64,000 nucleotides of DNA. It comes from a virus. Positions 2,709 through 59,968 of this stretch are shown here, piece after piece. The first letter of the stretch is position 1; every line of letters begins with the position of its first letter. The position numbers and the translations under genes were made by a program. The stretch covers positions 5,577-69,576 of IMG/VR virus record IMGVR_UViG_3300044714_000124. One strand, written 5' to 3'. The notes under the pieces were generated by a model, which was not told the DNA's origin, searched no databases, and saw nothing but the letters and a program-made list of their open reading frames with translations.

Positions 2709-2736
2709 CGGTGTGTATGTGCTAGGGACCCGCCCC

Positions 2737-3006
2737 ATGTCCGGCACGTCGACCCGCACCAAGTATTTTTCATTGCGTCTGCCCAATGCTTTGTGGAGCG
2801 AGCTTCAGCACAGAGCGAATGCGCGGGGAACCTCGATGTCATTCGAGATGCTGTCGGGATTGACGCTGTTGCCGGCGCGCGAGGAAGCACTGATTGACGC
2901 ATGGCGGGCGCTTGAACGCGACAAACCAAGCCGCAGCGAGGCCGTCAGGCGGCTGGTATTGAGGCAATTACGGGGACGGAAGCCACGGGAGGGATTGGAT
3001 GGCTAA
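2737..3006 (+). CDS. ribbon-helix-helix (Arc/CopG-like) DNA-binding protein
   Basis: KYFSLRLPNALWSELQHRANARGTSM and IDAWRA...PSRSEAVRRLV are two RHH-like segments; overlaps the start of the effector gene. Confidence 0.7.
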   Translation: MSGTSTRTKYFSLRLPNALWSELQHRANARGTSMSFEMLSGLTLLPAREEALIDAWRALERDKPSRSEAVRRLVLRQLRGRKPREGLDG

Positions 3007-4366
3007 GCGCACGAGACCGGTCGATGGCGTCAATCGCCGTTATACGTGGCGGCTCTATCCGCTGCGCGAGCAGGAGGAAATTCTCTGGCAGCAAGCGCGG
3101 ATGTGCGCCGATCTGTGGAATGCGCTGCTTGAGATGTGCGAGACGATCGAACAGCGCCTGCATCAGCGGCTGTCGTGGATCGACGGCGTTGGCGGCCGGC
3201 ATCGCGGCGTGGTCACTCATGATGAGTGTTGGTACATGACGGCTCAGGGTCCGAGTCGTCATCCGCCCGACGGTGACGCCGAGAAAGCGCGCCGTAGCGG
3301 CCTGCCGTCGGAATACGACATGGGTTATTGGATCACCGCGATGCTGCGCGAATTACCTGAGTGGCGGGCGCTCTCGACCTGGACGCCGCGCCGGGTGGCG
3401 ACCAGTTTGACGGCGGCTTGGAAAGCATTCTTTCGGCGCGTGCGCGAAGGGCAAACCGGTGCCGAGGCCGGCTATCCGCGCTATAAGTCGCGGCGCAAGG
3501 CCGCAAGCGTGCCGCACCGCTCGGTGAGCGGGTGCACCTTCGAGAAGTCGGCGACCCATCCGCGGGCCTGGGCGTTGCATCTCAAGGGCGTCGGCGGTCC
3601 TGGATGGAGCGGGATCGGTTGGGGCACTTACGGGCTCGATGCTGGAATTCCCGCTTTGGGCGTTGTGCGCCTTGCGGCAGCGCCGACCGAATGGCTCGAC
3701 GTCGATGTGGTACATCGCGGCGGCCATTGGGAGGCGTCGGCTGCGGTCGCGATCGCGGCGCCGCGGGTCGCGGGCAACCGGCCGGTCACTGTACGGCTGG
3801 ACCTGCTCGACGGGTTTTGTCTGGTCAACAACATGCCTGACACGCCGCCCGAACTTGTCGATGCCGCGATAGTGGCGGAAGATTGCGATCGGCTGCAAAC
3901 TGAGTTTGATCTGCGCTGGCCGCGCGGCAGGCGGTTGACGGATGATGAGCGCCGGAGCCGGGAAGCAGAATGGGGGGTCATCGCTCGCAAAATGAGACAT
4001 GTCGCCGACAAGCGCCGTAACGCGCTGCATGTCTGGTCGGCGCGCCTGGTGGCCCGCGCGAGCGTTATCACGGTGATCATGCCGGCGCCGAAATCGGCAA
4101 CGCGCAGTGCGCGCGGCGATGAAAAACAATGGGGTGCGGCCGTGGCTGACGTGGCGCGGGTGAACCGGGGCGCCTTGAATTTTGCACCGGCGATGGCGGC
4201 GCAGATGCTGCGATACAAGGCGGGCGAGGCGGGCATTGCCTGCACAATAGTCGAGGATAGCGAGCCTAAGCTGGCCGTGGCGCCTCGATTGGTGCAGGCG
4301 GTAAAAACCGTGAGGACCGCATCGCGCGGTGTGCGGCGGCCGGCGGTGTTACGTCATGCCGATTGA
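2999..4366 (+). CDS. TnpB-derived compact Cas12-like RNA-guided protein, predicted nuclease-dead (Cas12m/TldR-like)
   Basis: TnpB N-terminus RRYTWRLYP...EQ...LWNALL; AWKAFF...GYPRYKSR; degenerate RuvC-I (VTVRLDLL); RuvC-II ITVIMPAPKSATRSARG has Ile at the Glu position; LRYKA..AG motif; no CxxC Zn finger or RuvC-III; adjacent CRISPR array. Confidence 0.85.
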   Translation: MAKRTRPVDGVNRRYTWRLYPLREQEEILWQQARMCADLWNALLEMCETIEQRLHQRLSWIDGVGGRHRGVVTHDECWYMTAQGPSRHPPDGDAEKARRSGLPSEYDMGYWITAMLRELPEWRALSTWTPRRVATSLTAAWKAFFRRVREGQTGAEAGYPRYKSRRKAASVPHRSVSGCTFEKSATHPRAWALHLKGVGGPGWSGIGWGTYGLDAGIPALGVVRLAAAPTEWLDVDVVHRGGHWEASAAVAIAAPRVAGNRPVTVRLDLLDGFCLVNNMPDTPPELVDAAIVAEDCDRLQTEFDLRWPRGRRLTDDERRSREAEWGVIARKMRHVADKRRNALHVWSARLVARASVITVIMPAPKSATRSARGDEKQWGAAVADVARVNRGALNFAPAMAAQMLRYKAGEAGIACTIVEDSEPKLAVAPRLVQAVKTVRTASRGVRRPAVLRHAD

Positions 4367-4795: not shown

Positions 4796-5792
4796 GTGTT
4801 GCGGCCCGGCTCGCCGGGACGGAAGCGAGATGTGGTTACCGAATTACATTGGTCGCGGACGGCCATGGTGTTGCGGCCCGGCTCGCCGGGACGGAAGCGA
4901 GATAACCACTCCCTAGCACAGATCGCTGTGTTTGCAAACAGGTGTTGCGGCCCGGCTCGCCGGGGGGGAAGCGAGATGAGCAGATCGGCAACCGCGCGAC
5001 GCATTCTCTGCACGGGGGTGTTGCGGCCCGGCTCGCCGGGGAGGAAGCGAGATGTTCAGCGCCTCGACGCATTCGCCGACGAAGATGTGCAGGGTGTTGC
5101 GGCCCGGCTCGCCGGGGAGGAAGCGAGATGGGTTGCCGACGCGCCCAACTGGACGGGTGACCAAAGGTGTTGCGGCCCGGCTCGCCGGGACGGAAGCGAG
5201 ATGGGGGCGGAGTCCGAGGAGGGGCCGACGGCGGAGCCTTGTGTTGCGGCCCGGCTCGCCGGGACGGAAGCGAGATAGCGGAATGAAACCAATTCCGACG
5301 GCCTTTGCCGATTGTGTTGCGGCCCGGCTCGCCGGGAAAGAAGCGAGATGAACCTTGCGGCCCCAGCATTTCCGACCGCGCTATGTGCGAGTGTTGCGGC
5401 CCGGCTCGCCGGGGCGGAAGCGAGATAAAAAATAGAGCCGGGAAACATCCTGATTCCGTGGATGTGTTGCGGCCCGGCTCGCCGGGGCGGAAGCGAGATG
5501 TCTTAATTTGGTTGAGGGCGGTGGCTGTCGTCGCCCGGTGTTGCGGCCCGGCTCGCCGGGGAGGAAGCGAGATTGGCGCGCCGGCTGATAAACGGACGCA
5601 ACACCCTTTGTGTTGCGGCCCGGCTCGCCGGGGAGGAAGCGAGATCGGATCATGTGAACCCCCAACAACCGGGGCCGCGCGGAGGGTGTTGCGGCCCGGC
5701 TCGCCGGGACGGAAGCGAGATCAGCAGACAAGCCTGGCAAATTCGCGGCCGGGATTGTGTTGCGGCCCGGCTCGCCGGGGAGGAAGCGAGAT
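4796..5792 (+). CRISPR. CRISPR array 1: 14 repeats, 13 spacers (35-41 nt)
   Basis: 36-nt repeat GTGTTGCGGCCCGGCTCGCCGGG(ACG/GAG/GCG/GGG/AAA)GAAGCGAGAT starting at 4796, 4868, 4942, 5018, 5094, 5167, 5241, 5314, 5391, 5464, 5538, 5610, 5686, 5757. Strand inferred from the effector orientation. Confidence 0.98.
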
Positions 5793-27069: not shown

Positions 27070-28029
27070 TTGCCGAAACTGGTCATCTCTCTAGCGACCC
27101 GAGGCCGCCCGGCGCAGCTTCTTGACACCATCCTGAAGTCCCGCGCGAACTGGACGCACCCGGAAACCGTGCTGGTGGTCGCCTGCGACGATGACGACCA
27201 GCCATCCATCGCCGCGGTGCTCGGCCTCAATCCCGCGATCCGCCATCCGCAATTGCCGGTCCCCCAGACCGGTATCGTGCTTGATGTCAGGCCAAGAGAA
27301 GACACCATCGCCGGCAAATGGAACCGCGCAATCGAAGTCCCCGCCGATGTCTATCTGGTGGCCGCCGATGATGCTCCCGATGTCACGCCGGGTTACGACA
27401 GCGCCATTCTCGAAGCCGCTGGCCGTTTCAACGACGGAATCGGTGTCGTATATGGGCACCTCGCCAACGCTTCCTTTCCCGGCATCATGGCCCCAACCCG
27501 CAAGTTTGTCGAAAAGCTCGGCCATATCTTTCCTCCGTTGTTCTCCTACTGGTTCGTCGATCACTGGATCGACGATATCGCGCGATTGATCGACCGCATT
27601 TCGTTTGCCGATGTTCGCACCGACCAATCCCGCGCCGGGCAGACCCAGGAAATGCGCGAGCCTGCTTGGTGGGCGAATTTCTTCGATGCGGGCTATCTGC
27701 TGCGCCGGCGGATCGCTCATGCGATCGTCTCCGGCGAGGACTTCATCGAGACTCCGGGCCGGAAAGCGATACTGCTTGCCCACCATCCCCTGATCGAATT
27801 CCGTTCGCGCTGGATCAACGACAACGTCCGCGCCAATGCGGGCGCAATGACCAATTGGGCGGCCGAGCAGAACAAGGACGAGCGCTACATGCGCGTGCGC
27901 AATGCCGCGGTGGGGATGCTCGATGGCATTCTCGACGGAATGGATGCCGTCGAGGCGGCGCGGTTTCGTGGCTTGCTGGTGCCGCCCACCATCGTGCCGG
28001 CGCTGCCGCGGGCTGTGGGGTTCATGTGA
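27070..28029 (+). CDS. glycosyltransferase (GT-A/GT2-like)
   Basis: TTG start after GAGGA; ISLATRGRP, VACDDDD, VAADD, FVDHWIDD. Confidence 0.75.
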   Translation: MPKLVISLATRGRPAQLLDTILKSRANWTHPETVLVVACDDDDQPSIAAVLGLNPAIRHPQLPVPQTGIVLDVRPREDTIAGKWNRAIEVPADVYLVAADDAPDVTPGYDSAILEAAGRFNDGIGVVYGHLANASFPGIMAPTRKFVEKLGHIFPPLFSYWFVDHWIDDIARLIDRISFADVRTDQSRAGQTQEMREPAWWANFFDAGYLLRRRIAHAIVSGEDFIETPGRKAILLAHHPLIEFRSRWINDNVRANAGAMTNWAAEQNKDERYMRVRNAAVGMLDGILDGMDAVEAARFRGLLVPPTIVPALPRAVGFM

Positions 28030-29462
28030 TGGCCGTCCCGCGCAGTTATTTACCATTTCCGCCTGATCTATATATCGTAAATCCTCGTATTGTGTTAGCC
28101 CACGGCTGCTTCGACCTTCTCCATCTCGGCCACATTCGCCATCTTCAGGAAGCCCGCGCCATGGGCGATCGTCTGGTTGTGAGCGTGACCGGCGACCAGC
28201 ACGTCGAAAAGGGTTTGGGCCGCCCGCGCTTTACCGCCGCTGAGCGCGTGGAGGCGCTCAAGGCGTTGGCCTGCGTCGATGAAGTGTTCGTCAACGATGA
28301 TTCGGATGCGGTTGCAACAATCCAGCGAATTCGGCCGGCGGTGTATGTCAAGGGCGCCGATTACGTCTCGCACGGCAACGATGTTGTGGGAATGTCCGAT
28401 GCCATTTTGGCCGCCGAGGTCTCGGCGGTTCGATCCCATGGCGGCGAATTTGCTCTCACCAAGGCCGCCCTGTGGTCGTCCTCCCGTCTTCTGGCCGGCG
28501 AGGTCTATTCGCCCGACGTCTTCGATTATCTCTCCCACGCCCGCGCCAATGGCTTCGGCGAGGCTATCGCCGAAGCCATGGCAAAAGCCGATCGGCTTAA
28601 GATCATCTTCGTGGGCGAGCGCATCATCGACGAGTACCGCTACGTCGAGGCGCTTGCGCGTCCGTCGAAGGAAACCATCGTCGCGGTTGCCGAAGGTGAC
28701 CGTACCGAAGTGTTCGACGGTGGCGTTGCGATCGCTGCGCAGCATGGCGAATGGAAGCGCGCCAAAGTCGTCACGGCTGGCATTCCGTTGCGCAAGACAC
28801 GGTTCATCGACCGTGATTTTCACCGCAAGCTGTTCGAAAGCTATTCCGCCCCGCAGATGGAGTGGAAGCCCGAACAGCGCGAGCGGTTCCGCGAAATCGT
28901 GGCGAAGGAAGCCGGCGAGGCCGATGTGGTGATCGCCCTCGATTTCGGGCACGGATTGATCGATGCGCAAATGCGGCGCGCGATGGAAGCTGCATCGTTC
29001 TTCGCGGTGAACTCCCAGACCAACGCGGCGAACCGCGGCTTCAATCCGATCACGCTTTATCATCGCGCCGATCTGGTGTGTCTCGACGATCCGGAAGCGC
29101 GGCTTGCCGTGCATCTCCAATTCGAGCCGATCGCGATGGTGATTGATGCTCTGCGGGCAAAGATTGAAAGTCCTCGTTTCCTTGTCACACACGGTCGCTA
29201 TGGCGCGGTGGCTTGGCAGCAATGGTTTCAAGCCTCACTGTACCGCGAGCTTCCGGCCTTGGCGACCCGTGTCGTGGACACCATGGGCGCCGGCGACGCC
29301 TTCTTCGCGGTGGCCGCTCCGCTGGTGGCGGCGGGTTGCGGCCTCGAAGCCGCCGCCTTCGCCGGCAGTGTCGCTGCGGCCATCAAGACCTCGATCGTCG
29401 GGCATCGGCGCCCGGTCGGCCGCGGTGAGTTGGTGGCGACCATCAAGGCGTTGCTGAAATGA
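28029..29462 (+). CDS. bifunctional nucleotidyltransferase / PfkB sugar kinase (HldE/RfaE-like)
   Basis: HGCFDLLHLGHIRHL, YVKGADY, DFGHG, VVDTMGAGDAF. Confidence 0.9.
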   Translation: MAVPRSYLPFPPDLYIVNPRIVLAHGCFDLLHLGHIRHLQEARAMGDRLVVSVTGDQHVEKGLGRPRFTAAERVEALKALACVDEVFVNDDSDAVATIQRIRPAVYVKGADYVSHGNDVVGMSDAILAAEVSAVRSHGGEFALTKAALWSSSRLLAGEVYSPDVFDYLSHARANGFGEAIAEAMAKADRLKIIFVGERIIDEYRYVEALARPSKETIVAVAEGDRTEVFDGGVAIAAQHGEWKRAKVVTAGIPLRKTRFIDRDFHRKLFESYSAPQMEWKPEQRERFREIVAKEAGEADVVIALDFGHGLIDAQMRRAMEAASFFAVNSQTNAANRGFNPITLYHRADLVCLDDPEARLAVHLQFEPIAMVIDALRAKIESPRFLVTHGRYGAVAWQQWFQASLYRELPALATRVVDTMGAGDAFFAVAAPLVAAGCGLEAAAFAGSVAAAIKTSIVGHRRPVGRGELVATIKALLK

Positions 29463-29547
29463 TCGACTTCGTATTCAGCTTTGTGCACGACTTTTTGGTA
29501 GTGTTTGTGATGACGTTTCTTGGGCTTGGTATTGCCAGCTACGTGTT

Positions 29548-29840
29548 ATGGGGAAAGGCAGGATGGGATACGTTTGTGGACATGCTGAAATGAACGACTT
29601 CCCTAGGGATAACGTAGATGGATATGCTCCGGATCGTCGCCCAGTCCTGGCCACTCGCGGCGGTGGCGATCTCGTTCATTGCATTCGTCGGAGTCTACGC
29701 GCTGTTTAGTCGGGCCGCCCGTCGCGAGGACGAGCGCGTACGCATGTTCAGGATTGAAAACCGCAGCAGGGACAGTTGACGTGATTCGCAGGCATGGGGA
29801 AAGGCAGGATGGGATACGTTTGTGGACATGCTGAAATGAA
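29548..29840 (+). repeat. 47-bp perfect direct repeat (29548-29594, 29794-29840)
   Basis: ATGGGGAAAGGCAGGATGGGATACGTTTGTGGACATGCTGAAATGAA occurs twice. Confidence 0.9.
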
Positions 29841-30435
29841 TGAATCCATCAGCACCACACTGATCTGGCCCGGACGTCCGTTTGCCGACGGTCGAGGCTT
29901 CGGCTGGGATGTCCAGCAGGCATTCACTCACGTCGAGGCTGAGCCGGATGCCTTTGAGACGGCCTTGAAAATCATGACTTCGGCCCGCGACAGGCGCAGC
30001 AAGCTCTATTTCGTCGGCAACGGCGGCTCGGCGGCGATCGCGAGCCACATGGCGGCCGACTTCACGAAAGCGGGTGGCTTTTCGGCCTTTGCCCTCAATG
30101 ATGCCGCTGCATTGACGGCGTGGTCGAACGACTGCGGCTACGAAAAATCCTATGTGTCGCAACTCCACAATCACCTGGACAACGGCGATGTCGTGATAGC
30201 GATTTCAAGCTCGGGGGCCTCGCGCAATATCATCGATGCGGTCGATGTCGATCACCAGGGGCCGCATGAATTCGACCGCATCACGCTTTCCGGCTTCAAT
30301 CCTGGCAATCCGCTCCGCGCCAAAGGCGATCTTAACTTCTACGTTCCGTCGCACCGCTATGGCGTGGTCGAGGTCGTGCATTTGATGATCCTTCACGCGA
30401 TGCTTGACAGTATCGTGGCGCAGGAGGTCGCGTGA
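29836..30435 (+). CDS. SIS-domain sugar-phosphate isomerase (GmhA-like)
   Basis: FVGNGGSAAIASHMAAD, ALTAWSNDCGY, IAISSSGASRNI. Confidence 0.88.
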   Translation: MNESISTTLIWPGRPFADGRGFGWDVQQAFTHVEAEPDAFETALKIMTSARDRRSKLYFVGNGGSAAIASHMAADFTKAGGFSAFALNDAAALTAWSNDCGYEKSYVSQLHNHLDNGDVVIAISSSGASRNIIDAVDVDHQGPHEFDRITLSGFNPGNPLRAKGDLNFYVPSHRYGVVEVVHLMILHAMLDSIVAQEVA

Positions 30436-30834
30436 TGAAACCCATAGAACCGCTGCACGTGAATGTTCGTTTCGGTCCCGGCATTCCGGTCGAGGTTTAT
30501 GGAACAGCGCTGTTGCAGTTCGAAAAGTATCTGCGCGCCTTGGCGAATCTGCCGTGCGAAGTATTCCAGGATCGCGCCGGCGATGATTCCAAGCTCCGCG
30601 CCGCGATGACGCCGCAACAGAGGGCAAAGCTATGATCCATCCTTCCCGCATGAGGTTGCGTGTATGTGCCGTAGGAGGCGATTGCTGGGAGGGCATGGAC
30701 GACGCGCAGCATTGCAATGCTGCTTGCAAATTAAGCGGTGCCAATAAGCGTTATTGGGATGTGAGGCCGGGAGAATCCCTTGGGGAGATGATGCGGCGCG
30801 GTGGCCCCGGTATTGTGGAGGATAAAAATCAGAC

Positions 30835-31983
30835 ATGACCTCTCCCCTCCCCGAACTCGTCAGCCATGTGGTCGGCGGATCGCCGGTCTACGACCTCGAG
30901 CTCGACGGTACCAAGATCGGCTGGTATCGCGACCGCGTGCTGGCATGGCAGCGGGGCGAGCGCATCGCGCCTATTACGATGGATGTCGCATGGACGCGCA
31001 AATGCGAGGCAGCCTGCAATTTCTGCTACGCCGCTTTGCAGGCGAGCGAAGATACCGTCATCACAAAACAGAACGCTTTCGACTTCCTGGAAGACGCCGC
31101 TGCGATCGGCGTCAAGGGCGTCTCTCTGATCTCCGATGGCGAAAGCACCAACGTGCCCTGGTATGCCGAGTCGATCAAATACGGCGCCTCCCTCGGCTTG
31201 CAGCTTGGCATCAGTTCGAACGGCGTCAAACTCACGCCGGATGTGCTCGAACAAATCCTGCCGCATCTGTCTTACCTCCGCTTCAATTTCTCCGGCGGCG
31301 ACAAAAAACGCTGGGCGCAGATCATGGGGATGAAACAGGCGATGTTCGATCGCGTCGTCGCCAACATCAAGGCCGCCATGGAGATCAAGCGGCGCGATAT
31401 GTTAACGTGCAACGTCAACATGCAGTTCGTCGTCATGCCAAAGGACGGTGACCAGATAATACCGTTCACCAGACTGGCGAAGGAACTGCGGCCCGACTAC
31501 GCCATCATGAAGCATTGCGCGGATAGCGTCGATGGCGAGCTCGACGTCGATTACCGCCGCTATAGCGACCTGTTTCCGCTGTTCGAGGAAGCGGAGACCT
31601 ACAGCGATGCGACCTTCCGGGTGGCGGTGAAATGGTCGCGGATACAGAACGAGGGCAAACGGCTCTATCAAAGGTGCTACGGCCCGCCGTTCATTCTGCA
31701 AATGTCCGGCAATGGGCTGATCGCGCCGTGCGGGCAGAAGTTCAATTCGCGCTATGCGAAGTTTCATATCGGGAACATCACGCGTGACCGGTTCCGGGAT
31801 ATCTTTGCGAGTGACCGCTATTGGGAAGTGATGAGCTATCTGGCAAGCGATGCGTTTGATGCGCAGCAGAATTGCGGCGAAAATTGTCTTCAGACGAATA
31901 CCAATCTCTGGCTGGATCGCTTTGTGAAGGGAAACGCAGCGTTTCCGACTACACCGGCGCCGCCGCAACTGGGATTCTTGTGA
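30835..31983 (+). CDS. radical SAM/SPASM protein
   Basis: CEAACNFC (CxxxCxxC); C-terminal CYGP...APC...IGNI...C...C. Confidence 0.9.
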   Translation: MTSPLPELVSHVVGGSPVYDLELDGTKIGWYRDRVLAWQRGERIAPITMDVAWTRKCEAACNFCYAALQASEDTVITKQNAFDFLEDAAAIGVKGVSLISDGESTNVPWYAESIKYGASLGLQLGISSNGVKLTPDVLEQILPHLSYLRFNFSGGDKKRWAQIMGMKQAMFDRVVANIKAAMEIKRRDMLTCNVNMQFVVMPKDGDQIIPFTRLAKELRPDYAIMKHCADSVDGELDVDYRRYSDLFPLFEEAETYSDATFRVAVKWSRIQNEGKRLYQRCYGPPFILQMSGNGLIAPCGQKFNSRYAKFHIGNITRDRFRDIFASDRYWEVMSYLASDAFDAQQNCGENCLQTNTNLWLDRFVKGNAAFPTTPAPPQLGFL

Positions 31984-31984
31984 A

Positions 31985-32117
31985 CTAACATAGCCCGGCT
32001 CGCCGGGGAGGAAGCGAGATGGCGCGTTGATAAAGGAGTTAATCGAGAGCTGCGTGGAGTGAACGGCCATTGCGAGCATTTGTATTGCGGCTCGGCTCGC
32101 CGGGACGGAAGCGAGAT
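31985..32117 (+). CRISPR. CRISPR mini-array 3 (two repeats of the array 1 family, 61-nt spacer)
   Basis: GCCCGGCTCGCCGGGGAGGAAGCGAGAT ending at 32020 and GTATTGCGGCTCGGCTCGCCGGGACGGAAGCGAGAT at 32082-32117. Confidence 0.9.
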
Positions 32118-32159
32118 TGGCTCGCTCGCGGGAGGGCCAAGCAAGTCAGATGATTTGGA

Positions 32160-33947
32160 GTGCCGGACGTGAAACTCGCCCAATACGTCGCCGACTGGAT
32201 CGCCTCATTCTCTCCCCGCGTCTATGCGGTCTGTGGCGCCGGCGCCATGCACCTCAACGATGCGATCTGTCACCATGACTGGATCGACGTGATTGCCGTA
32301 CATCATGAACAGGCGGCCTGTTTCGCCGCCGAGGCGGAAGCGCGCATCACCAACGAACCGTCCGTCGTCCACGTTACCGCAGGTCCCGGCGGCACCAACA
32401 CCATGACAGGCATCGCCTGCGCATTCGTCGATTCCATTCCCATGATAGTCCTTGCCGGGCAGGTATCCTCGGAGACCATGCGCGCCGGACTGCGCTATCG
32501 CCAGTATGGAATGAACGAGCTCGACATGCTGACGATGGTCAAGTCGATCACCAAGTATTGCGCATCGGTGACAAGGCCCGATTCGATCCGCTACCATCTT
32601 GAACGTGCCTTGCATCTCGCCAACACGGGCCGCAAGGGGCCGGTGTGGCTCGAAATCCCGCTGGATATCCAGGCCGCCGAAATCGATCCGGCCAGCCTGC
32701 GGGCCTTCAACGTCGCGGAATATCCGGTGATCGAAAATCAGGCCTATCTCGCTCGCAATGCCGTCAAGGTAATGGATATGATCGCCGCCGCCAAGCGGCC
32801 CTTGATGATCATAGGCAACGGCGTGCGGCTCTCGGGTGCATGCGATGACCTGCTCCGGCTGGTCAATCTGCTCGAAATTCCAGTCGTCTCATCGTGGAAT
32901 GCGAGCGACATCGTGCCGAACGATTATTCGTGGTACATCGGCCGTTGCGGCATTTTTGGTGGGAGGGTGGCAAATCGGGCGGTGCAGGACGCCGATGTTA
33001 TTCTTGCGATCGGCACAAGGCTTTCCGTTGCGCAGATCGGGCATGATACAACTGCTTTCGCGCCGCACGCCGCAAAGATCGTGGTCGATATCGATCCCTT
33101 CGAGGCAGAGCGGCTCAACCCGCATCTTGCTGTCGTGGCCGATGCCGGCGAATTCATTCGTGCCTTATTTGATCGAATCGGTCCATGGCGGGGGCGGTTC
33201 CAGTCAACCGTATCATGGGTTCGGCCATGGGCATCAGGAACATTGGAGGACAGGCCCGCGCTTCTTGATCCCGATGCCGGCGTTGATGCCTATCGGTTCG
33301 TGCGCATGCTGCCGCGATTTCTCGACGATAATGCGATCGTCGTCACCGACGTGGGGTTTTCGTTCATTCCGGTCATGCAGGAATTGAGTTTGAGGCCCGG
33401 ACAGCGGCTGTTTCATTCCTCCGGCGTTTCTCCGATGGGTTGGGCGCTCGCCGCCGCCATTGGCGCCGCCAAGGCTGCGCCCGACTGTCAGGTCGTATGC
33501 CTGATCGGCGACGGCGGCTTGATGGTCAATATCCAGGAGTTTCACACCATCGCCCAGCTCGGATTGCGAATCACCGTGTTCGTGTTCTGCAACGACGGCT
33601 ACGCGACCATGCGGCTCACCCAGCAGCATCATTTTCAGCGCGAGTCGATATCAGGACCGAACAGCGGGCGCGCCATAGCGCCGGAAATGATCATCGATGT
33701 GGCCGAAAGATTCAATCTGCCGACGTATTTCTTGGAGTCTGACGATGAGCTGGATGAGTTTACCGACGGACTGTTCAATCCGCGCCGTCTCACGCCCTGC
33801 GTAGTCGCCTTGAGCATGGCGCCCGATCAGGTTATCTCGCCGCGGGTGATGTCCTATATGAAGGATGGGCAGATGATCCCCGGCCGGCTCGATGCGATGT
33901 GGCCGCCGCTGGCGCAGCAAGAGCGAATCATGGAGACTGCAACGTGA
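32160..33947 (+). CDS. thiamine-pyrophosphate-dependent enzyme (acetolactate synthase-like)
   Basis: HHEQAACFAAEA, VTAGPGGTN, GRKGPVWLEIPLD, IGDGGLMVNIQE...NDGY. Confidence 0.9.
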   Translation: MPDVKLAQYVADWIASFSPRVYAVCGAGAMHLNDAICHHDWIDVIAVHHEQAACFAAEAEARITNEPSVVHVTAGPGGTNTMTGIACAFVDSIPMIVLAGQVSSETMRAGLRYRQYGMNELDMLTMVKSITKYCASVTRPDSIRYHLERALHLANTGRKGPVWLEIPLDIQAAEIDPASLRAFNVAEYPVIENQAYLARNAVKVMDMIAAAKRPLMIIGNGVRLSGACDDLLRLVNLLEIPVVSSWNASDIVPNDYSWYIGRCGIFGGRVANRAVQDADVILAIGTRLSVAQIGHDTTAFAPHAAKIVVDIDPFEAERLNPHLAVVADAGEFIRALFDRIGPWRGRFQSTVSWVRPWASGTLEDRPALLDPDAGVDAYRFVRMLPRFLDDNAIVVTDVGFSFIPVMQELSLRPGQRLFHSSGVSPMGWALAAAIGAAKAAPDCQVVCLIGDGGLMVNIQEFHTIAQLGLRITVFVFCNDGYATMRLTQQHHFQRESISGPNSGRAIAPEMIIDVAERFNLPTYFLESDDELDEFTDGLFNPRRLTPCVVALSMAPDQVISPRVMSYMKDGQMIPGRLDAMWPPLAQQERIMETAT

Positions 33948-38659: not shown

Positions 38660-38809
38660 GGTTGTATCGGTTCATGAGACATACATGGCGGCCGCGCGCA
38701 AGTATCAAGGTGCCTTTGCTCACGCCGGTCAGGCGCCGCAGAACGTTCCCCTCTCGCCCCATCGTGATTGGTTGATAGTGGCCAGTCCGAACTTTGGAGC
38801 CTAACCCCG

Positions 38810-40111
38810 ATGGGTGAAACCAACTGGCGCGGCCCGCTCAATGCGATGGGCTCTCTCGAAGTCGATGCGGGGACGACCGCGTCGATACAGCCGTTCGACG
38901 GGCCGAGCGGGTTCTATCAGGGTATCGTCTACCCCGACATTCGCGGCGCACCGTTTCCGGCCGAGGGCACGGCACCGGGGCGCGCATCCGGGTTTCTCGA
39001 CATTGCGTCGCAGTTCACGATCGATAACAAGCCGCAGGCCAATGCGACGAATGTGATCGCAACGTCGCAGGTTGCGACGACCTCGCTTGCCATTGCGCTC
39101 GTCACGGCCGCGCCGGCCGGGGCCAATGCGGGCTCGCCGCAATTGACGGTCGCCGTGCCGATCATCCCCAGCGGGACGACCGTTGCAACGACTGCGGCGA
39201 TCGCGATCGATTTCGGGTTCACTACGGGCACGACCACGGCCGCGAGTTCGACCGTCGTGGTCTACGACAATACCCAATTCACGTTGGGACAATGGGTGTT
39301 CATCGGCGGTGCGGGTGCCTCGGGAAACACCGCGGGCCTGTTCACCCAGGTGACGGCGATCGCGACCGCGAATTTCACCGGGATCAATGTGTTTCCGCTT
39401 CCGACCGGTTCGCTTGCCAATGCGCCGATCGGACAGGCTGCGCTTTACGGGTCGGGCCTGTTGCCGGCTCAGACGCAATTCGGTCCGGGAGCCGTCACGC
39501 CGGCTGCGATCAATCCGAATGTGCTTGCCGGCCTTTACAAGGTGCATAATCCGAGGGAAGCGATCGCGCGTAATCTATCGGTTACGCTGGTCACCGGGGG
39601 CACCGCGACTTCGGTTGGGTTCCTGGCGCTCGGATGGGATCTGTGGCGCCAGCCGATGAGCGAGCTGATTACCGTTCCGGCGACCACGTCGGCCACGACC
39701 GCATATGGCAAGAAGGCGTTCAAGTTCGTCAGTTCGATCACGCCTCAATCGAATCCGGCCGGCAATTCGTATGCGGTCGGTGTCGGCGACGTGTTCGGTT
39801 TGCCGATTCGTGCCGATGAATGGGAACAGACGCAAATCTATTGGAACGGCTGTCAGGTTCCGACCTCGCTTGGGTTTACCGGTGCGGTCAGCACCACGGG
39901 CTCGCCGGCCACCAACACGACGGGCGACGTGCGAGGGACGATCCAGGTTTCTACGGTCGGGGGCGGTTCGGCCGCCGCTGTTGCGACCGCGCAGGTATCG
40001 AACGGAACGGCCCGGCTGTGCGTTATTCAGAACGCCGGTGTGTGGAATCAGGTATTCGGGACGCCGATCAATACGGTGCCGATGTTCGGGGTGCAGAATT
40101 CTACGAACTAG
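38810..40111 (+). CDS. virion structural protein
   Basis: Thr/Gly-rich; GKKAFK, VGVGDVFGLP, ATNTTGDVRGT. Confidence 0.7.
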   Translation: MGETNWRGPLNAMGSLEVDAGTTASIQPFDGPSGFYQGIVYPDIRGAPFPAEGTAPGRASGFLDIASQFTIDNKPQANATNVIATSQVATTSLAIALVTAAPAGANAGSPQLTVAVPIIPSGTTVATTAAIAIDFGFTTGTTTAASSTVVVYDNTQFTLGQWVFIGGAGASGNTAGLFTQVTAIATANFTGINVFPLPTGSLANAPIGQAALYGSGLLPAQTQFGPGAVTPAAINPNVLAGLYKVHNPREAIARNLSVTLVTGGTATSVGFLALGWDLWRQPMSELITVPATTSATTAYGKKAFKFVSSITPQSNPAGNSYAVGVGDVFGLPIRADEWEQTQIYWNGCQVPTSLGFTGAVSTTGSPATNTTGDVRGTIQVSTVGGGSAAAVATAQVSNGTARLCVIQNAGVWNQVFGTPINTVPMFGVQNSTN

Positions 40112-40137: not shown

Positions 40138-40259
40138 AATCAAATCACGGTTACGTCGATGGATTACACCTATCAACACGGTGCCGATGTTCGGTGTCGT
40201 GCTTCAATGAGGCCGTGACACTTGAGATGTCACGGAAATCGAGTTCCCGTGATTTGATT
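40138..40259 (-). CRISPR. single-spacer unit A with a type I-G-like repeat
   Basis: Minus-strand repeat GATTTCCGTGACATCTCAAGTGTCACGGCCTCATTGAAGC (40240-40201), spacer 40200-40166, flanking inverted repeat AATCAAATCACGG/CCGTGATTTGATT. Confidence 0.8.
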
Positions 40260-40685: not shown

Positions 40686-40934
40686 GTGAGCAAGCTTACG
40701 GCAAAGCGGCGGAATGCGTTGCCGGCGAACACCTTCGCTGGTCCCGATAGAAGCTATCCGATTCCAGATGCAAGCCACGCCAGGAACGCGCTTGCCAGGG
40801 CTTCACAGCATGCGGGGGCTGATCTGAAGGCAAAAATACGCGCCAAGGTTCACAAGAAATTTCCGCAAATCCAGATGGCGATGGAGGGCGGGGCGGTCAG
40901 GGCGCGGATGGATCGCCAGAGATGCAAGACATGA
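40686..40934 (+). CDS. small conserved phage protein
   Basis: KLTAKRRNALPANTFAGPDRSYPIPDASHARNALARA. Confidence 0.7.
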   Translation: MSKLTAKRRNALPANTFAGPDRSYPIPDASHARNALARASQHAGADLKAKIRAKVHKKFPQIQMAMEGGAVRARMDRQRCKT

Positions 40935-40938
40935 TTGG

Positions 40939-41040
40939 TGGAGGATTAAACTTGATGCTGCCGCCAGCGAATAGGTTATCACGTTCGGGCTTCAATGAGG
41001 CCGAGGCGTGGATAGCCCCGGAAATCTGTTTAATCCTCCA
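40939..41040 (-). CRISPR. single-spacer unit B with a type I-G-like repeat
   Basis: Minus-strand repeat GATTTCCGGGGCTATCCACGCCTCGGCCTCATTGAAGC (41026-40989), spacer 40988-40954, perfect 13-bp flanking inverted repeat TGGAGGATTAAAC/GTTTAATCCTCCA. Confidence 0.8.
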
Positions 41041-41095
41041 AGCAGGATTGATACACCGACGTTTTCCGTTTGTCTACTGTTGACGCGGAGCGTTC

Positions 41096-41770
41096 ATGCT
41101 GCCGAATGTTATCACTTACTCTTTGATTGCGGCGTCCGCGACAGGTGTGGTCAATGCGGCGCCCATCCAGGGGCCGGGACCTCTCCCGCTTAATTCTCCG
41201 CAGACGCTTGCTCCGACGGGCTCCCTGGTCAATTCGACCACGAATCCGGTCGTACTCGATAATCAGCGGCGGCTGCTGATTACGACCTCGGGCAACGAAA
41301 GCAGCAATAAATTCACCATCGTCGGGCTCAATCAGAACGGCTTCACGACCACGGAAATAATCGTCGGGCCGAGCAGTTCGACGGCGCAATCGCTGCTCGA
41401 TTACAAGACCGTGATTTCCATCACGCCCCTTGCCACCACGGCGGCGACGGTCTCGGTCGGCACTAACGGGGTCGGCGATACGCCTTGGAACATCATCAAT
41501 ACCCACGACACGCCGGTCAATATCGAGGTCTCGACGATCCTGGTCACCGGGGCGGCGACGTGGTCGGTGCAATATACCGATGACGATCCGAACAACCTGC
41601 CTGCCGGCGTGACGGCGCCGCAGGCGTTCAATCATGCGACCATCGTCAATGCGACGGCGACGGTTGACGGGTCGATCACTTCGCCGATCTTCGCGAACCG
41701 GTTGCAGATAACCGGAGGAACGGGAACGATCAGGTTCATATCGCTGCAAGCCGGGATCAGCGGGCCATGA
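41096..41770 (+). CDS. virion structural protein
   Basis: Thr-rich beta-type composition; WSVQYTDDDP. Confidence 0.65.
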   Translation: MLPNVITYSLIAASATGVVNAAPIQGPGPLPLNSPQTLAPTGSLVNSTTNPVVLDNQRRLLITTSGNESSNKFTIVGLNQNGFTTTEIIVGPSSSTAQSLLDYKTVISITPLATTAATVSVGTNGVGDTPWNIINTHDTPVNIEVSTILVTGAATWSVQYTDDDPNNLPAGVTAPQAFNHATIVNATATVDGSITSPIFANRLQITGGTGTIRFISLQAGISGP

Positions 41771-42385: not shown

Positions 42386-42565
42386 GTGGACGCGCAAGGC
42401 AGCAAATCGACACTCGGCGGTGTCCTGTGGACGCTGCCGGCGCCGGCTGCTTATAATTCTCCAGGGATTGCCGGCCAGATTTCCTACGATTCCAACGGAA
42501 ATTTCTATCTGTGCTATGCGTCGAACATGTGGGCATTGTTTGTTGGCCTCTTGGTGTTTCCTTGA
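42386..42565 (+). CDS. short paralog of the following gene (59 aa)
   Basis: MDAQGSKSTLGGVLWTLPAPAAYNSPGIAGQISYDSNGNFYL versus MADAQGSKSTPGGVLWTLPAPAADDSPGRAGQISYDSSGNFYL. Confidence 0.6.
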   Translation: MDAQGSKSTLGGVLWTLPAPAAYNSPGIAGQISYDSNGNFYLCYASNMWALFVGLLVFP

Positions 42566-42580
42566 CTCGGGAGATTTGGC

Positions 42581-42838
42581 GTGGCTGACGCGCAAGGCAG
42601 CAAATCGACACCGGGCGGCGTCCTGTGGACGCTGCCGGCGCCCGCGGCGGACGATTCGCCGGGGCGCGCCGGGCAGATTTCCTATGATTCAAGTGGAAAT
42701 TTCTACCTGGATTATGGGCCGAATATGTGGGCCAAATTTACCGGAACGCTGATATGGCCGGTGCAGCCTTACGTCTTCGACTTTTCTCAGGTTGCGAACA
42801 GTCAATACATTCCGATACTTCTTGGCGGGTTTGCGTGA
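42581..42838 (+). CDS. small structural/fibre-associated protein
   Basis: GGAG RBS; P..PG.AGQI.YD..YL motif. Confidence 0.6.
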   Translation: MADAQGSKSTPGGVLWTLPAPAADDSPGRAGQISYDSSGNFYLDYGPNMWAKFTGTLIWPVQPYVFDFSQVANSQYIPILLGGFA

Positions 42839-42841
42839 TGA

Positions 42842-45217
42842 ATGGCTAGTTATACCTTCTTTACGGTACTCAACTCGGCCGGAGCGACAACCTATTTCGG
42901 CGCCGTCGAGAACGGTACCGGATTATTCAATCAATCGATTCCGACAAATCTATCCGGCACGGCGCTGATCGGTTCGTCTGTAATGGCGAACGCGATACCG
43001 TTTACGCTTGCGACGGATCAGCCGGCTATGCCGGTCAATCTGGCTTCGGTGGGTGGCGTTAGTTTTGGGTTGGGCCAGGCCGTCATGGCGACCTCGCTGC
43101 CGGTCGCCATAGCGTCAAATCAATCCGCAATTCCTGTTACCATTGGTTCGGGGACTTCGCCGATCGGCACGGCGACGGTGCTTCAAGGGACCAATCCCTG
43201 GGTCGTCAATCTCTCGCAAATCAACGGCACGGCGATCAGTATCGGCCAGGGAGTGATGACGGCTTCCGTGCCCGTCGTGATCGCTTCCAATCAAAGCAAT
43301 TTGACGACGGTGCTCGGCGCTGCTCTGCCGGCCGGCACGAACGCTATTGGTACAGTGTCGATCACGGGCGCGTTGCCGGCTGGGACGAATGCGTTAGGAA
43401 CCGTCTCCATAACCGGCGCGCTGCCCGCGGGTACCAACGCCATCGGCACGGCGACGGTCTTGCAGGGCACCGCGCAATGGGCCGTCAATCTCGAACAGGT
43501 TGGCGGTTCGACCTTGGCCTTCGGTCAGGCCGTGATGGCCTCGTCGATTCCGGTTGCGATCGCATCGAACCAATCTGCGATTCCAGTTACCGGCTCGCTC
43601 AGCGCGTCGATCTCCGGTTTTCAGCCTGGCAACAGCTACACGTCGCAAACCTTTAGTACCGCTGCCGGCACCATAGGGTTGCCGACGGGAACGACGGTCA
43701 TCGTCTATAACGTCGGCAGCAATTCGGTCAGTGTGGCGCTCGGGACGACCACGATCTCGGCCGCCACGACCAATGACCAGATTCAGGCCGGTGGGTGGCT
43801 CGCCTATGCGGTTGGTACCGCGACGACGCTGGGCGGCATTACGGCCAACAGCACGACCAAACTCGTGTTGTCCGGCGGTCAGGGCTTGCCTACCGGTGTT
43901 GGTGGGCTCTCCAGCGGCGGGAGCGGCGGTTCCGTTACCCAAGGAACGGTACCGTGGTTGGATAACATCTCGCAGTTCGGCGGCTCTACGGTCGCTCTTG
44001 GTCAGGGGGTGATGGCCTCGTCGATGCCGGTGGTGATCGCGTCGAACCAGAGCAACCTCACGACCGTCCTCGGTGCGGCAATTCCGGCCGGCACGAACGC
44101 CATCGGCACGGTTTCTGTGACCGGCGCGCTTCCTGCGGGCACCAACGCCATCGGTACTGCCACGGTGCTTCAGGGCACTGCGCAATGGGCCGTAAATCTC
44201 GATCAGGTTGGCGGCTCGACTTTGGCCTTCGGCCAGGCCGTCATGGCGACCAGCATTCCGGTCGCGATAGCGTCGAATCAAAGCGCGATTCCCGTCACCA
44301 TCGGTGCCGGCACCAACGTTATCGGCACGGCGACGGTGCTTCAAGGGACCAATCCGTGGGTCGTCAATCTCTCGCAAATTAACGGGACGGCGATCAGTAT
44401 CGGCCAGGCCGTGATGGCGACCTCGCTGCCGGTCGCCATCGCGTCGAATCAAAGCGCGATTCCCGTCACCATCGGGGCCGGCGCGAACGCTATCGGCACG
44501 GTCTCCGTGACCGGGGCGCTGCCGGCCGGCACCAACGCCATCGGAACGGCGACGGTCTTGCAGGGTACCGCGGAATGGGCCAGCAACGTCAATCAGATCG
44601 GCGGCGTGGCGCTCGCCTTCGGCCAGGCCGTCATGGCGACCTCGATCCCGGTCGCCATCGCATCGAATCAGTCCACGCTGCCGATCAACCTCGGGACCGT
44701 GGCCGGCGTCGCCATAGCGACTTCCGGCTTCTCAGGTGGGCTTGCGGTCGGCGGGTTGACGGCCGCCGGCGGGGCTCCCGTCGGCTATCCGCTGTGGCTG
44801 GGAGCGCAGGCACAGACCGGGGAAATCGCGACCTCGGCAACCGGCAAACTCATTCCCCTGGTCGCCGACAAGGTCGGGAAGCAGATCATTCTGCCGCATG
44901 CCAATCCTGAGAATTATACCTCCGGCAAGGCGGCTATCAACACGACGGTGGCGCAGCAAATCATCACCGCTGCCAACGCCACCAACCGGTTCTATATGAC
45001 ATCGATGCAGCTTGGTAACAGTTCGACCGCTGCCACTACGATCCTCGTTAGTTTGAACGATCCTGCGCAATCGCAGTTCATTGTTCCTGGGGGCGGCGGC
45101 AGCAACCTGACTTTTCCTGTTCCGCTGGTGTTCGGGCTGGGCAGCGCTGTCCTGGCGACCTGCGCTGCGGCGGCAGCGACCGTGTATGTCAATGCGCAGG
45201 GCTATGTAGGGACGTGA
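42842..45217 (+). CDS. repetitive fibre-like virion protein
   Basis: Multiple GQAVMATSLPVAIASNQSAIPV and ALPAGTNAIGTV repeats. Confidence 0.75.
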   Translation: MASYTFFTVLNSAGATTYFGAVENGTGLFNQSIPTNLSGTALIGSSVMANAIPFTLATDQPAMPVNLASVGGVSFGLGQAVMATSLPVAIASNQSAIPVTIGSGTSPIGTATVLQGTNPWVVNLSQINGTAISIGQGVMTASVPVVIASNQSNLTTVLGAALPAGTNAIGTVSITGALPAGTNALGTVSITGALPAGTNAIGTATVLQGTAQWAVNLEQVGGSTLAFGQAVMASSIPVAIASNQSAIPVTGSLSASISGFQPGNSYTSQTFSTAAGTIGLPTGTTVIVYNVGSNSVSVALGTTTISAATTNDQIQAGGWLAYAVGTATTLGGITANSTTKLVLSGGQGLPTGVGGLSSGGSGGSVTQGTVPWLDNISQFGGSTVALGQGVMASSMPVVIASNQSNLTTVLGAAIPAGTNAIGTVSVTGALPAGTNAIGTATVLQGTAQWAVNLDQVGGSTLAFGQAVMATSIPVAIASNQSAIPVTIGAGTNVIGTATVLQGTNPWVVNLSQINGTAISIGQAVMATSLPVAIASNQSAIPVTIGAGANAIGTVSVTGALPAGTNAIGTATVLQGTAEWASNVNQIGGVALAFGQAVMATSIPVAIASNQSTLPINLGTVAGVAIATSGFSGGLAVGGLTAAGGAPVGYPLWLGAQAQTGEIATSATGKLIPLVADKVGKQIILPHANPENYTSGKAAINTTVAQQIITAANATNRFYMTSMQLGNSSTAATTILVSLNDPAQSQFIVPGGGGSNLTFPVPLVFGLGSAVLATCAAAAATVYVNAQGYVGT

Positions 45218-57649: not shown

Positions 57650-57760
57650 CCGCTGATAGGACTGCCGTTCATGTCGGCCTCATTGAAGCGTGCGAAACGA
57701 GGCCCGTGGGATGATGCGTGGGCCGATATTTTCCGACGTGAACGGCAGCCTTATCAGCGG
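57650..57760 (+). CRISPR. single-spacer unit C with a split type I-G-like repeat
   Basis: CGGCCTCATTGAAGC ends at 57689; spacer about 57690-57725; then ATATTTTCCG; arms 57650-57677 and 57733-57760 form a 28-bp stem. Confidence 0.75.
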
Positions 57761-57780
57761 CTCGACAATATGGGTGAATG

Positions 57781-58467
57781 ATGCCTCTTTTGCATTCCTC
57801 TTCTCCGGGTGCCTTCCGGGCCAACGTCAAGACGTTGATGAGCGAGGTTGGCAAAAGTCCTCACGTGGGATCACGGGATCAAGCATTAGCTATCGCATAC
57901 GAGCTTAAGCGCCGCTCCAAACATGCCTTCGGCGGAGCGCCCGCGCCGTGGTTTGTCAGGCAAGAATCCCGCGGGATGATGCGCGGCCCTATTCTCTCCG
58001 CGGTTGCCGGGCGAACCGATCATCATCCGATGTCCGTCGCCAGCGGATCGTATGTGTTGCCGGCGGACCATATGAGCCACCTCGGCCAGGGCAATTCGCT
58101 TTCGGGCGCCAACGTCGTCAACCGCATGTTCCGCATGGGGCCTTATGGCGGCGCAGCGCCCTCGATCAAGCACGGCATGGGCGCGCCGAAACCTCCGAAG
58201 ATGCAGGGCGTCATGGGGGCCTCGGGGGGCGCCATGGATGCCGGCGGGGCGCGTGGCAGTCATGGCGCGCCGGGTGCGCCGGTCCCCATCATGGCGGCGG
58301 GCGGCGAGTTCGTCGTACCGCCGGAAAAGCTCTTGGAATTCCTCCATCGCAACGGCCTGCCAGCGAACCTCAAATACGGTCACGCCATGATGGATGAATG
58401 GGTGAAATCGACGCGGCAGAAGCACATCAAGACGCTGAAAAAATTACCGGGGCCTGCGAAATCATGA
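57781..58467 (+). CDS. conserved phage protein (GRTD...GEFVV family)
   Basis: QALAIAY, GPI.S.VAGRTDH.PM.V.SGSYVLPAD, AAGGEFVVPPE. Confidence 0.7.
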   Translation: MPLLHSSSPGAFRANVKTLMSEVGKSPHVGSRDQALAIAYELKRRSKHAFGGAPAPWFVRQESRGMMRGPILSAVAGRTDHHPMSVASGSYVLPADHMSHLGQGNSLSGANVVNRMFRMGPYGGAAPSIKHGMGAPKPPKMQGVMGASGGAMDAGGARGSHGAPGAPVPIMAAGGEFVVPPEKLLEFLHRNGLPANLKYGHAMMDEWVKSTRQKHIKTLKKLPGPAKS

Positions 58468-58727
58468 ACCTCGATACGCCGACATACACCAAGGCGTCGC
58501 GATTTGTGACAAGGGAAGTGCCGTTTGTAACGTTTGGCAATCATCGGGGCCTGACCGATTTTCAATTGGCGAGCGACCCTGGATTGATGGAGTTTTTTCT
58601 ACACTTCAAACATTGCTTTAAAAGAAATGAATATCTCATGAGTTGGGTTTATGATCCTTATGATGAGTTGCAGGATGGGTCTCAAGCGACCCATCCGATG
58701 AAACTGCTGGGGCCTGCAAAATCATGA
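58464..58727 (+). CDS. AT-rich hypothetical protein ending with the same GPAKS as the upstream gene
   Basis: GGGGCCTGC(G/A)AAATCATGAAC occurs at both ends. Confidence 0.5.
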   Translation: MNLDTPTYTKASRFVTREVPFVTFGNHRGLTDFQLASDPGLMEFFLHFKHCFKRNEYLMSWVYDPYDELQDGSQATHPMKLLGPAKS

Positions 58728-59968
58728 ACAGCGAAGCGGCGGATTTTGCGTTATGCCGGACACATGCCGAACAGGCATGGTCGTTTCCAGCGCCTCCCGA
58801 ATGTGCCGCGAGCGATTGGTGGTCGCGGTTGCAGCAACAAAATCGCGGTGCGATCCGTCAGCTTCCGAACGCCGTGGAAGCTACCAGATTTGCTCAGACC
58901 AGCGCTGCGAGCGGCTTCGATCATCGGCTCGTCGACAAGGGCGATGCCCGGCGGGTGGTGAACTTCAAGCTTGAAGAGCTTGGAACGCGGTTTCTTGGGC
59001 TGAATTGGCCGCGAAACCTGATGGAGTCGCCGCTTTCGCTGCGCGAATCCATCGTGGACGTCGGCGGTTGCCAGTTGAGCAGCATTTTCCTGACGCATCT
59101 GTATTTTTATTTGCGGTCGTCGCAAATGGTCGGACGCGATCCCAGGAGCGTGCTCGAAATCGGGTCCGGTTACGGCGGTCTTGCCCGCATCTACAAGATG
59201 GGCCAGCCGCAGATGAGATATTATCTGGTCGATCTGCCGGAGTCGCTCTATTTCGCGGAAGTATTTTTGCGAGCCAATTTTCCGACCGCGCGTTTTCACT
59301 ACGTTGCGTACGGGGCGCCAATCCCCGACGACAATGTGGATTTCGTGTTCGTCCCGGTGCAGCAACTTGGCGCATTGAACGGACTGCATGTCGATCTGGT
59401 CATCAATACCGGCAGCTTGCAGGAAATGACGGACGCGGCGGTCGCATTCTGGATGAATTTCGTACAGAAGCGCATTGCTGCCGACTATTTCTACAGTTGG
59501 AACTATTTCCTCAACAACAAGAAGCATTTTGCCGAAGTTGGGGTGCAGGCTAATGCGATCTGCCCGGTGCTCGATCCTTATTGGGAAGTGCAGCGCTTCC
59601 GCATCAATGATCCGTTGACGTCGGTGGATTGCCAGCAGCGCAATTGGCTGGAGGTCGGGCTAAGAAGGATCAACGATAAAGCCTTCGATCCAGGCCAGTC
59701 GGTCACTCGATTGCTTGCGGAGGCTGACGTGCTGGTGGCGGCAAGCAATGGCTGGTTTGCCAAGGTGTGGATGTCGATCTGGCAGGAACCGAGGGCGATC
59801 GCGCTGAAGGCGATGCTGGAGGGCCTGGAAATTTTCAGGTCGGGAAGAAGCTTCGGCGTCACCAATCATCTATTGCTGGCGCTTCCGATCTTCAACGCTT
59901 ACGATGAGGCGGCTTACTATCTCAACCGGTTGAGTGCGCTGGCCGAGACGGCGGGACCAAACAAATGA
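58724..59968 (+). CDS. putative sugar O-methyltransferase
   Basis: SVLEIGSGYGGLAR, YYLVDLPESL, DLVINTGSLQEM. Confidence 0.8.
   Translation: MNSEAADFALCRTHAEQAWSFPAPPECAASDWWSRLQQQNRGAIRQLPNAVEATRFAQTSAASGFDHRLVDKGDARRVVNFKLEELGTRFLGLNWPRNLMESPLSLRESIVDVGGCQLSSIFLTHLYFYLRSSQMVGRDPRSVLEIGSGYGGLARIYKMGQPQMRYYLVDLPESLYFAEVFLRANFPTARFHYVAYGAPIPDDNVDFVFVPVQQLGALNGLHVDLVINTGSLQEMTDAAVAFWMNFVQKRIAADYFYSWNYFLNNKKHFAEVGVQANAICPVLDPYWEVQRFRINDPLTSVDCQQRNWLEVGLRRINDKAFDPGQSVTRLLAEADVLVAASNGWFAKVWMSIWQEPRAIALKAMLEGLEIFRSGRSFGVTNHLLLALPIFNAYDEAAYYLNRLSALAETAGPNK

Follow-up and report, generated by a model that had tools for sequence, protein, structure and literature searches.

A complete phage genome carries three small intergenic units, designated A, B, and C, in which a single type I-G CRISPR repeat, whole in A and B and permuted in C, is combined with a 36-nt spacer and enclosed by a closing stem, and in which each spacer corresponds, in diverged form, to a site located 105-265 nt away. 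At this site, the peptides encoded by spacers B and C agree with those of a related phage at every residue, rather than with those of the carrier itself. We propose that the units probably act as guides that employ a host type I-G Cascade-Cas3 system against related phages and spare the allele of the carrier itself. The genome comprises 69,576 bp and derives from a virus record with direct terminal repeats that is rated 100% complete. The window referred to below is the whole stretch of 64,000 nucleotides that was analysed (positions 5,577 to 69,576 of IMG/VR record IMGVR_UViG_3300044714_000124), and all coordinates are those of the window.

Anatomy of the units and subtype of the repeat

Unit B occupies an intergenic position on the minus strand (40939-41040) and consists, in order, of a stem arm, a full repeat, the spacer, and the complementary arm. 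In a minus-strand RNA, the 5′ arm of the closing stem (41028-41040) forms a 13-nt perfect inverted repeat with the 3′ arm (40939-40951), and these arms enclose the repeat with its hairpin (40989-41026), the 3′ end of which is the 8-nt handle ATTGAAGC, followed by the spacer (40953-40988). The predicted fold is closed by the 13-nt stem and is more stable than those of shuffled sequences (z score -4.98, compared to -5.45 for unit A and -7.11 for unit C). Around the handle, the sequence reads stem base CGG, then the four bases CCTC, then ATTGAAGC, and then the spacer. The repeat matches the Rfam family RF01330 (CRISPR-DR16) with 37.5 bits against a gathering score of 35, over the full-length model positions 1-37, and because this match lies on the minus strand it bears out the preliminary description, in which a CRISPR-type repeat and spacer had been read on that strand. 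The argument used there for the orientation also holds, in that the G-U pair of the repeat hairpin GGGGC/GCCUC exists only in the minus-strand RNA. Seven nucleotides upstream of the stem, weak promoter-like hexamers on the minus strand (TAGACA-17 nt-TATCAA, 41048-41076) were recognized by eye; they are absent from the consensus promoter scan, which listed no minus-strand promoter adjoining unit A or B.

Unit A (40138-40259, minus strand) is built in the same order as unit B, with its closing stem at 40138-40150 and 40247-40259, the repeat at 40201-40240, and the spacer at 40165-40200. Unit C (57650-57760, plus strand) is permuted, so that between its stem arms (57650-57677 and 57733-57760) the handle part of the repeat (57675-57689) precedes the 36-nt spacer (57690-57725) and the 5′ repeat part (57726-57735) follows it. 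There is accordingly one full repeat in each of A and B, while in C the 3′ and 5′ parts of the repeat flank the spacer, and the repeat's own stem thereby closes round the spacer. The closing stems of the three units range from 13 to 28 bp, and the spacer length of 36 nt is shared by all three and is that of type I-G. Within the spacer of unit C, an 8-bp G+C-rich hairpin followed by a T-run (57701-57724) was flagged as terminator-like.

All three units are intergenic, and neither A nor B has a second repeat within 100 bp. The 15-mer that lies beside the spacer has exactly three occurrences in the window, and these are also the only ones in the full genome of 69,576 bp. Units A and B have been inserted into two short intergenic gaps of the gene order geneA-orf123-orf82-geneB, which is kept in 35 related loci. 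A cargo cassette bounded by A and B was considered and rejected, since those 35 loci also conserve the two small intervening ORFs, as was a miniature inverted-repeat transposable element with shared terminal repeats, since the arms of the three units are unrelated.

To assign the repeat to a CRISPR subtype, we relied on its occurrence in bacteria, where the repeat motif forms 28 arrays with a period of about 70-76 in 27 of 120 bacterial loci. In the three annotated loci among those 27 (L007, L119, and L061), the arrays adjoin genes for Cas4g/Cas1g, Csb2, Cas7g, Cas3g, and Cas2, with Cas4g/Cas1g scores of 837, 723, and 833 bits (cut-off 560). This association with I-G cas genes identifies the repeat as one of subtype I-G. 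Units A and C score 30.7 and 22.2 bits against RF01330, both below the gathering score, and the repeat hairpins of A and B are not alike, so that one host Csb2 may not accept both. Type I-G, formerly I-U, is described as having a TTN PAM, 36-bp spacers, and a repeat ending in AGC (PMC6547450). According to the published account of I-G Csb2 (PMC9638904), the enzyme cuts 4 nt past the hairpin to leave an 8-nt handle, remains on the 3′ hairpin, and is required for assembly of the complex. The units agree with this geometry, as four bases (CCTC) separate their stem base from the 8-nt handle.

No Cas family was detected in the window, where 58 ORFs were scanned and 42 ORFs were compared with PHROGs, the protein scan covering the genome beyond its first 5.6 kb. 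The window does contain a 455-aa ORF (2999-4366, plus strand) with a TnpB-like N-terminus, which scores 60.5 bits for NCBIfam guided_TnpB (below the cut-off of 100), matches Pfam HTH_OrfB_IS605 and a PHROG transposase, shows no detected nuclease domain, and is preceded by a small ribbon-helix-helix ORF (2713-3006). The idea that the units are guides for this ORF was rejected because they match I-G repeats and not a TnpB scaffold. Other features of the window include two tandem paralogous small ORFs (42386-42565 and 42581-42838), both starting M(A)DAQGSKST... and lying directly 5′ of a repeat-rich, fibre-like gene of 791 aa (42842-45217). A block of sugar and cofactor genes (27666-33947) encodes an HldE-like heptose kinase/adenylyltransferase, a GmhA-like isomerase, a radical SAM protein, and an acetolactate-synthase-like thiamine-diphosphate enzyme, and a sugar O-methyltransferase gene is present at 58724-59968.

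Relation of the spacers to neighbouring genes and to a related phage

The best matches of spacers A, B, and C are phage genes adjoining the units. Read on the minus strand from 40988 to 40953, spacer B has the codons CCG AAC GTG ATA ACC TAT TCG CTG GCG GCA GCA TCA and encodes the peptide PNVITYSLAAAS. The plus-strand gene at 41096-41770, whose protein begins MLPNVITYSLIAAS, opens with ATG CTG, followed by CCG AAT GTT ATC ACT TAC TCT TTG ATT GCG GCG TCC, and this start encodes PNVITYSLIAAS. The self site of spacer B (41099-41137, plus strand) comprises the PAM position (41099-41101) and codons 3-14 of this gene. Spacer and gene agree at 23 of 37 bases and 11 of 12 residues, with mismatches at positions 6, 9, 12, 15, 18, 21, 22, 25-27, 30, 33, 36, and 37, while seed positions 1-5 and 7-8 are matched, and the similarity begins precisely after the last repeat base. 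The nine synonymous codon differences and the single non-synonymous one (GCG versus ATT) that had been noted earlier were confirmed by direct reading and by a script, as were the inverted orientation of the spacer relative to codons 3-14 and the presence of CTG at the PAM position, where TTN is the experimentally shown I-G PAM (PMC6547450).

Taken by itself, the nucleotide match of spacer B is weak, because a match as good (at most 13 mismatches over 36) was found within 1.5 kb for 62 of 736 random 36-mers from comparable loci. At the protein level, the peptides of units A, B, and C show 11, 11, and 10 identities, respectively, with their nearby sites, and at least 10 identical residues nearby were found for 14 of 400 random 36-mers of the window, which came chiefly from the repeat-rich fibre gene.

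The closest known relative, a 68,606-bp contig that was compared at the protein level, clarifies the source of these differences. It encodes P0002, an orthologue of gene 41096-41770 (81% identical), which reads MLPNVITYSLAAAS. After Met-Leu, the N-terminus of P0002 equals the peptide of spacer B at 12 of 12 residues, compared to 11 of 12 for the carrier's own protein. The preliminary description had taken the spacer to be a recoded copy of the phage's own gene and had proposed looking among orthologues for its codon pattern; at the protein level, the orthologue does carry the spacer's sequence, and it is this relative's protein, and not the carrier's, that the spacer encodes. The third-position changes therefore reflect the ordinary divergence of related phages. 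A diversity-generating retroelement was rejected as their source, as the changes do not lie at adenines and no reverse transcriptase was seen. The same contig encodes P0073, an orthologue of gene 57778-58467 (93% identical), which reads VRNEARGMMRGP. This is the peptide of spacer C at 12 of 12 residues, whereas the phage's own gene reads VRQESRGMMRGP and agrees at 10 of 12.

The counterpart of spacer A is formed by the final codons of gene 38768-40111 (self site 40060-40098, minus strand), and that of spacer C by an internal stretch of gene 57778-58467 (self site 57952-57990, plus strand). Both spacers are same-sense copies of their sites, while B is inverted. For A as for B, similarity to the self site starts at the first base past the handle and spans about 35-36 nt. 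The peptide of spacer A reads ..PMFGVV, and 3 of the 47 listed orthologues end ..PMFGVVNS.., while the carrier's C-terminus is ..PMFGVQNSTN. Not one of these 47 C-termini has the Q of the carrier (40094-40096), the codon of which falls on seed positions 1-3 of the self site. This Q could be an escape substitution.

The distribution of differences over the three self sites, which have 7-13 mismatches to the spacers, follows a pattern. Site A is flanked by TTC (40096-40098) and site C by TTT, and in both the TTN PAM is kept but the seed is mismatched, with differences at positions 1, 2, 3, 6, 24, 30, and 33 of 35 in A and seed mismatches at positions 3, 4, and 7 in C. At site B, on the other hand, the seed is kept but CTG takes the place of TTN. 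The chance of at least two TTN among three sites is 0.007. Such a pattern would be expected if type I-G adaptation took the spacers from a relative and the carrier must stay uncut.

We also observed a 9-nt direct repeat, ATGCTGCCG, at 40955-40963 and 41096-41104. The copy at 40955 lies just past the orf82 stop, 10 nt after a GGAGG within the outer arm of unit B, and together they resemble the gene's native ribosome site and start as these occur in relatives. The same 9 nt are also the reverse complement of the last codons of spacer B. This repeat may be due to chance (roughly estimated at 0.006) or may be a trace of the assembly of unit B.

Searches for targets, relatives, and a host were carried out in several collections. 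In IMG/VR, no exact match was found to the 22-25 nt nearest the PAM in spacers A, B, and C, and the spacers of viral contigs L316/L339 and L314, which carry units of the same kind, matched only the units themselves. Among 108 related loci (730 kb), the best match to spacer A had 5 mismatches and none within 9 was found for B or C; the I-G repeat unit was present in none of these loci. An IMG/VR search with the protein of gene 41096-41770 found no relative, a search there with an alignment of its homologues returned 58 loci with 29-55% identity, and a search of metagenomes with P0002 returned 50 loci, the best at 59% identity. A comparison of 22 units with one another and with all loci revealed no cross-targeting, and none of 635 spacers from I-G arrays in the compared loci matched the window beyond 19 nt. 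A host search in GTDB genomes gave one match, which was irrelevant.

Closed units in other viruses and alternative explanations

An exact scan of IMG/VR for the 15-mer identified at least 116 loci. For the closing-stem test, we used the 162 matches situated away from locus ends (159 among the loci listed and the three of the window), and found a perfect stem of at least 9 bp between the sequence preceding the handle and that following the spacer at 23 of these 162 listed matches, compared to 0 of 161 displaced controls. One of the 23 stem-bearing matches sits in an ordinary array. Among the matches listed, several viral contigs carry more than one unit (three in L314, two in L316/L339, and two in L273), and further unit-bearing IMG/VR loci include L274, L234, L237, L288, L319, L329, and others. 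By-eye reading recognized TTGnnn-17-TAnnnT-like hexamers a few bases upstream of the stem in most units listed.

The units of other viral contigs likewise have spacers that match nearby sites, 68-620 nt off, with 6-13 mismatches. Among the viral matches listed, 12 of 20 closed solitary units have a site with at most 13 mismatches within 1.5 kb (62 of 736 controls), and 6 of the 20 have one with at most 8 mismatches (6 of 736 controls). These figures bear on whether the units could be RNA anti-CRISPR (Racr) decoys, i.e., transcribed solitary repeats that soak up host I-G Csb2 and Cas7, the spacer-like part being irrelevant. Viral intergenic solitary repeat units are known to act in this way (PMC10651486), and the three copies, the lack of cas genes among the ORFs of the window, and the lack of an exact target in the searches above would all fit. 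However, a decoy needs no handle-adjacent segment of 36 nt that encodes a relative's protein at 12 of 12 residues beside a TTN-flanked homologue, nor does it account for the TTN found at 7 of the 12 nearby self sites among the matches listed (P about 4e-7), and it leaves unexplained why a stem should link the hairpin with the spacer's 3′ end. We consider it unlikely that the units serve solely as decoys, although a decoy role is compatible with a guide role.

The permuted form is represented by at least 19 non-redundant viral units (18 from IMG/VR among the matches listed, plus unit C), in which the spacer and the 5′ repeat part together measure 43-46 nt, while 0 of 90 solitary matches in the 120 bacterial loci have the permuted closed form. 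In an alignment of the stems of these 19 units, 92.6% of stem cells are paired and 106 double-sided changes occur, compared to 34.7 in shuffles; the units had been pre-selected for 8 of 9 pairs, so the alignment demonstrates sequence covariation and not that the stem exists. It is conceivable that the units have no function and persist by chance, as degraded array fragments or scars of recombination that were acquired from hosts or relatives. The scores of A and C under the Rfam threshold and the target searches without an exact match could be read in this sense, and the direct repeat of 9 nt (40955 and 41096) may point to a rearrangement. Nevertheless, the recurrence of one architecture with wholly different, highly paired stem sequences across the permuted units listed, the outcome of the closing-stem test, for which no units had been selected, and the presence of two or three units on several contigs make such an origin improbable.

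Self-regulation was also considered, with partial matches allowing Cascade to bind, but not cut, the phage's own neighbouring gene, in the manner of promoter silencing by CreA and Cracr. CRISPR RNA-like RNAs are reported to act by partial complementarity (bioRxiv 10.1101/2024.10.29.618823), and the seed of unit B fits the start of the carrier's own gene at positions 1-5 and 7-8. Yet site B lacks TTN, the seed mismatches of A (1-3) and C (3, 4, and 7) should prevent binding, and the sites lie within or at the ends of coding regions and not in promoters, which together render this reading highly improbable. Least credible of all is a structure in the plus-strand mRNA, in which the spacer complement in a late transcript would pair with the gene start and control translation: on the plus strand, the spacer complement could pair imperfectly with codons 3-14, with five of the mismatches being potential G-U pairs, but when 40930-41145 is folded as plus-strand RNA, the unit closes on itself and does not pair with 41102-41137, and neither the period-3 mismatches, the Rfam match on the other strand, nor the same-sense copies in A and C fit such a structure.

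Proposed mechanism and relation to known systems

If the units do act as guides against related phages, as we consider probable, each would be a small RNA gene composed of a stem arm, one repeat or its two halves, a 36-nt spacer, and the complementary arm, the spacer presumably being the sequence that a related phage has at the nearby site. We infer that such units are transcribed, processed, and loaded, and that killing follows. Host Csb2 would bind the hairpin and cut 4 nt past its base, yielding the 8-nt handle. The closing stem would keep the Csb2-bound helix paired to the 3′ end of the same guide, replacing a downstream repeat, and in this way a single repeat could putatively serve as two. 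Cascade-Cas3 would then destroy co-infecting relatives that have the matching allele and a TTN PAM, and the carrier itself would escape, since its allele deviates in either the PAM (B) or the seed (A and C). With the guide and the immune allele linked, recombination would neither separate them nor yield suicidal combinations, and spread through the repair of cut genomes is possible.

Several features of the units have precedents in the virus-borne mini-CRISPR arrays of SPV1 and SPV2 (Medvedeva et al. 2019, PMC6858448), which are reported to be similarly intergenic and devoid of cas genes, with host-type repeats and one spacer, and in which the spacer is aimed at a close relative, the orthologous site of the carrier is mutated, and the target lies near the array. 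The same report notes this proximity of target and array, terming its origin and consequences unclear, and states that phage mini-arrays (Faure et al. 2019) target the adjacent genes of relatives. Viral mini-arrays directed against relatives, with mutated self sites and targets near the array, are already known (PMC6858448, PMC7099407, PMC11656645), and as guides the units would belong to this known kind of phage-against-phage weapon. Mini-CRISPR arrays, however, have a repeat-spacer-repeat structure, whereas each unit here contains a single repeat, intact (A and B) or permuted (C), within a closing stem of 13-28 bp. The units also differ in having no leader, in being of subtype I-G, in being dispersed as three per genome, and in that the target could be identified at the protein level.

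The solitary repeat units, or Racrs (Camara-Wilpert et al. 2023, PMC10651486), are alike in being single intergenic repeats of viruses without cas genes and possibly with their own promoter; the available text of that report does not contain the term I-G. Unlike Racrs, the units described here continue beyond the repeat with a stretch of spacer length, which is akin to a nearby gene and is joined back by a stem. A further parallel is found in the CRISPR RNA-like regulators CreA and CreR and the viral Cracr, which are described as compact and one-guide, with degenerate repeats, carried by phages, and dependent on host Cas proteins (bioRxiv 10.1101/2024.10.29.618823). According to that account, CreA and Cracr match promoters of host cas or toxin genes over at least 9 PAM-proximal bases and belong to subtypes V-A, I-F, I-E, I-C, and I-B, whereas the units described here match phage structural genes, differ from the copy of the carrier itself in the seed or the PAM, and are of subtype I-G. 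Our search of article texts did not turn up any account of a viral unit in the closed one-repeat or the permuted form, a result that is not proof of its being unpublished. The new part may be the architecture, namely the closed one-repeat or permuted unit.

Free-standing homing endonucleases of T-even phages offer another point of comparison. The gene for such an enzyme adjoins the site that it cuts in relatives, and the phage's own site is immune through sequence differences, resulting in marker exclusion. By analogy, the linkage of weapon and immune site could favour their joint spread, although homing endonucleases are protein nucleases, while an RNA guide and a host nuclease would be involved here, and the comparison is an analogy only. 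A more ambitious joint reading, which we put forward as possible though doubtful, is that closed one-repeat crRNA genes are a virus-specific invention in which a single Csb2 cut makes both ends of the guide, and that the linked guide and immune allele constitute a poison-antidote pair that kills rival alleles or, via recombinational repair, converts them, as an RNA-guided counterpart of homing-endonuclease marker exclusion.

On the guide reading, these observations would extend the range of phages known to direct host CRISPR systems at their relatives to subtype I-G and to soil phages. They also put numbers on the unexplained pattern of targets beside arrays, in that nearby self sites are enriched over the 20 listed units and the I-G PAM is present at 7 of 12. 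Closed units would evade array finders that depend on pairs of repeats and may consequently be undercounted in viromes. If it works as we infer, the closed one-repeat design would be a naturally occurring, minimal way of expressing one type I guide.
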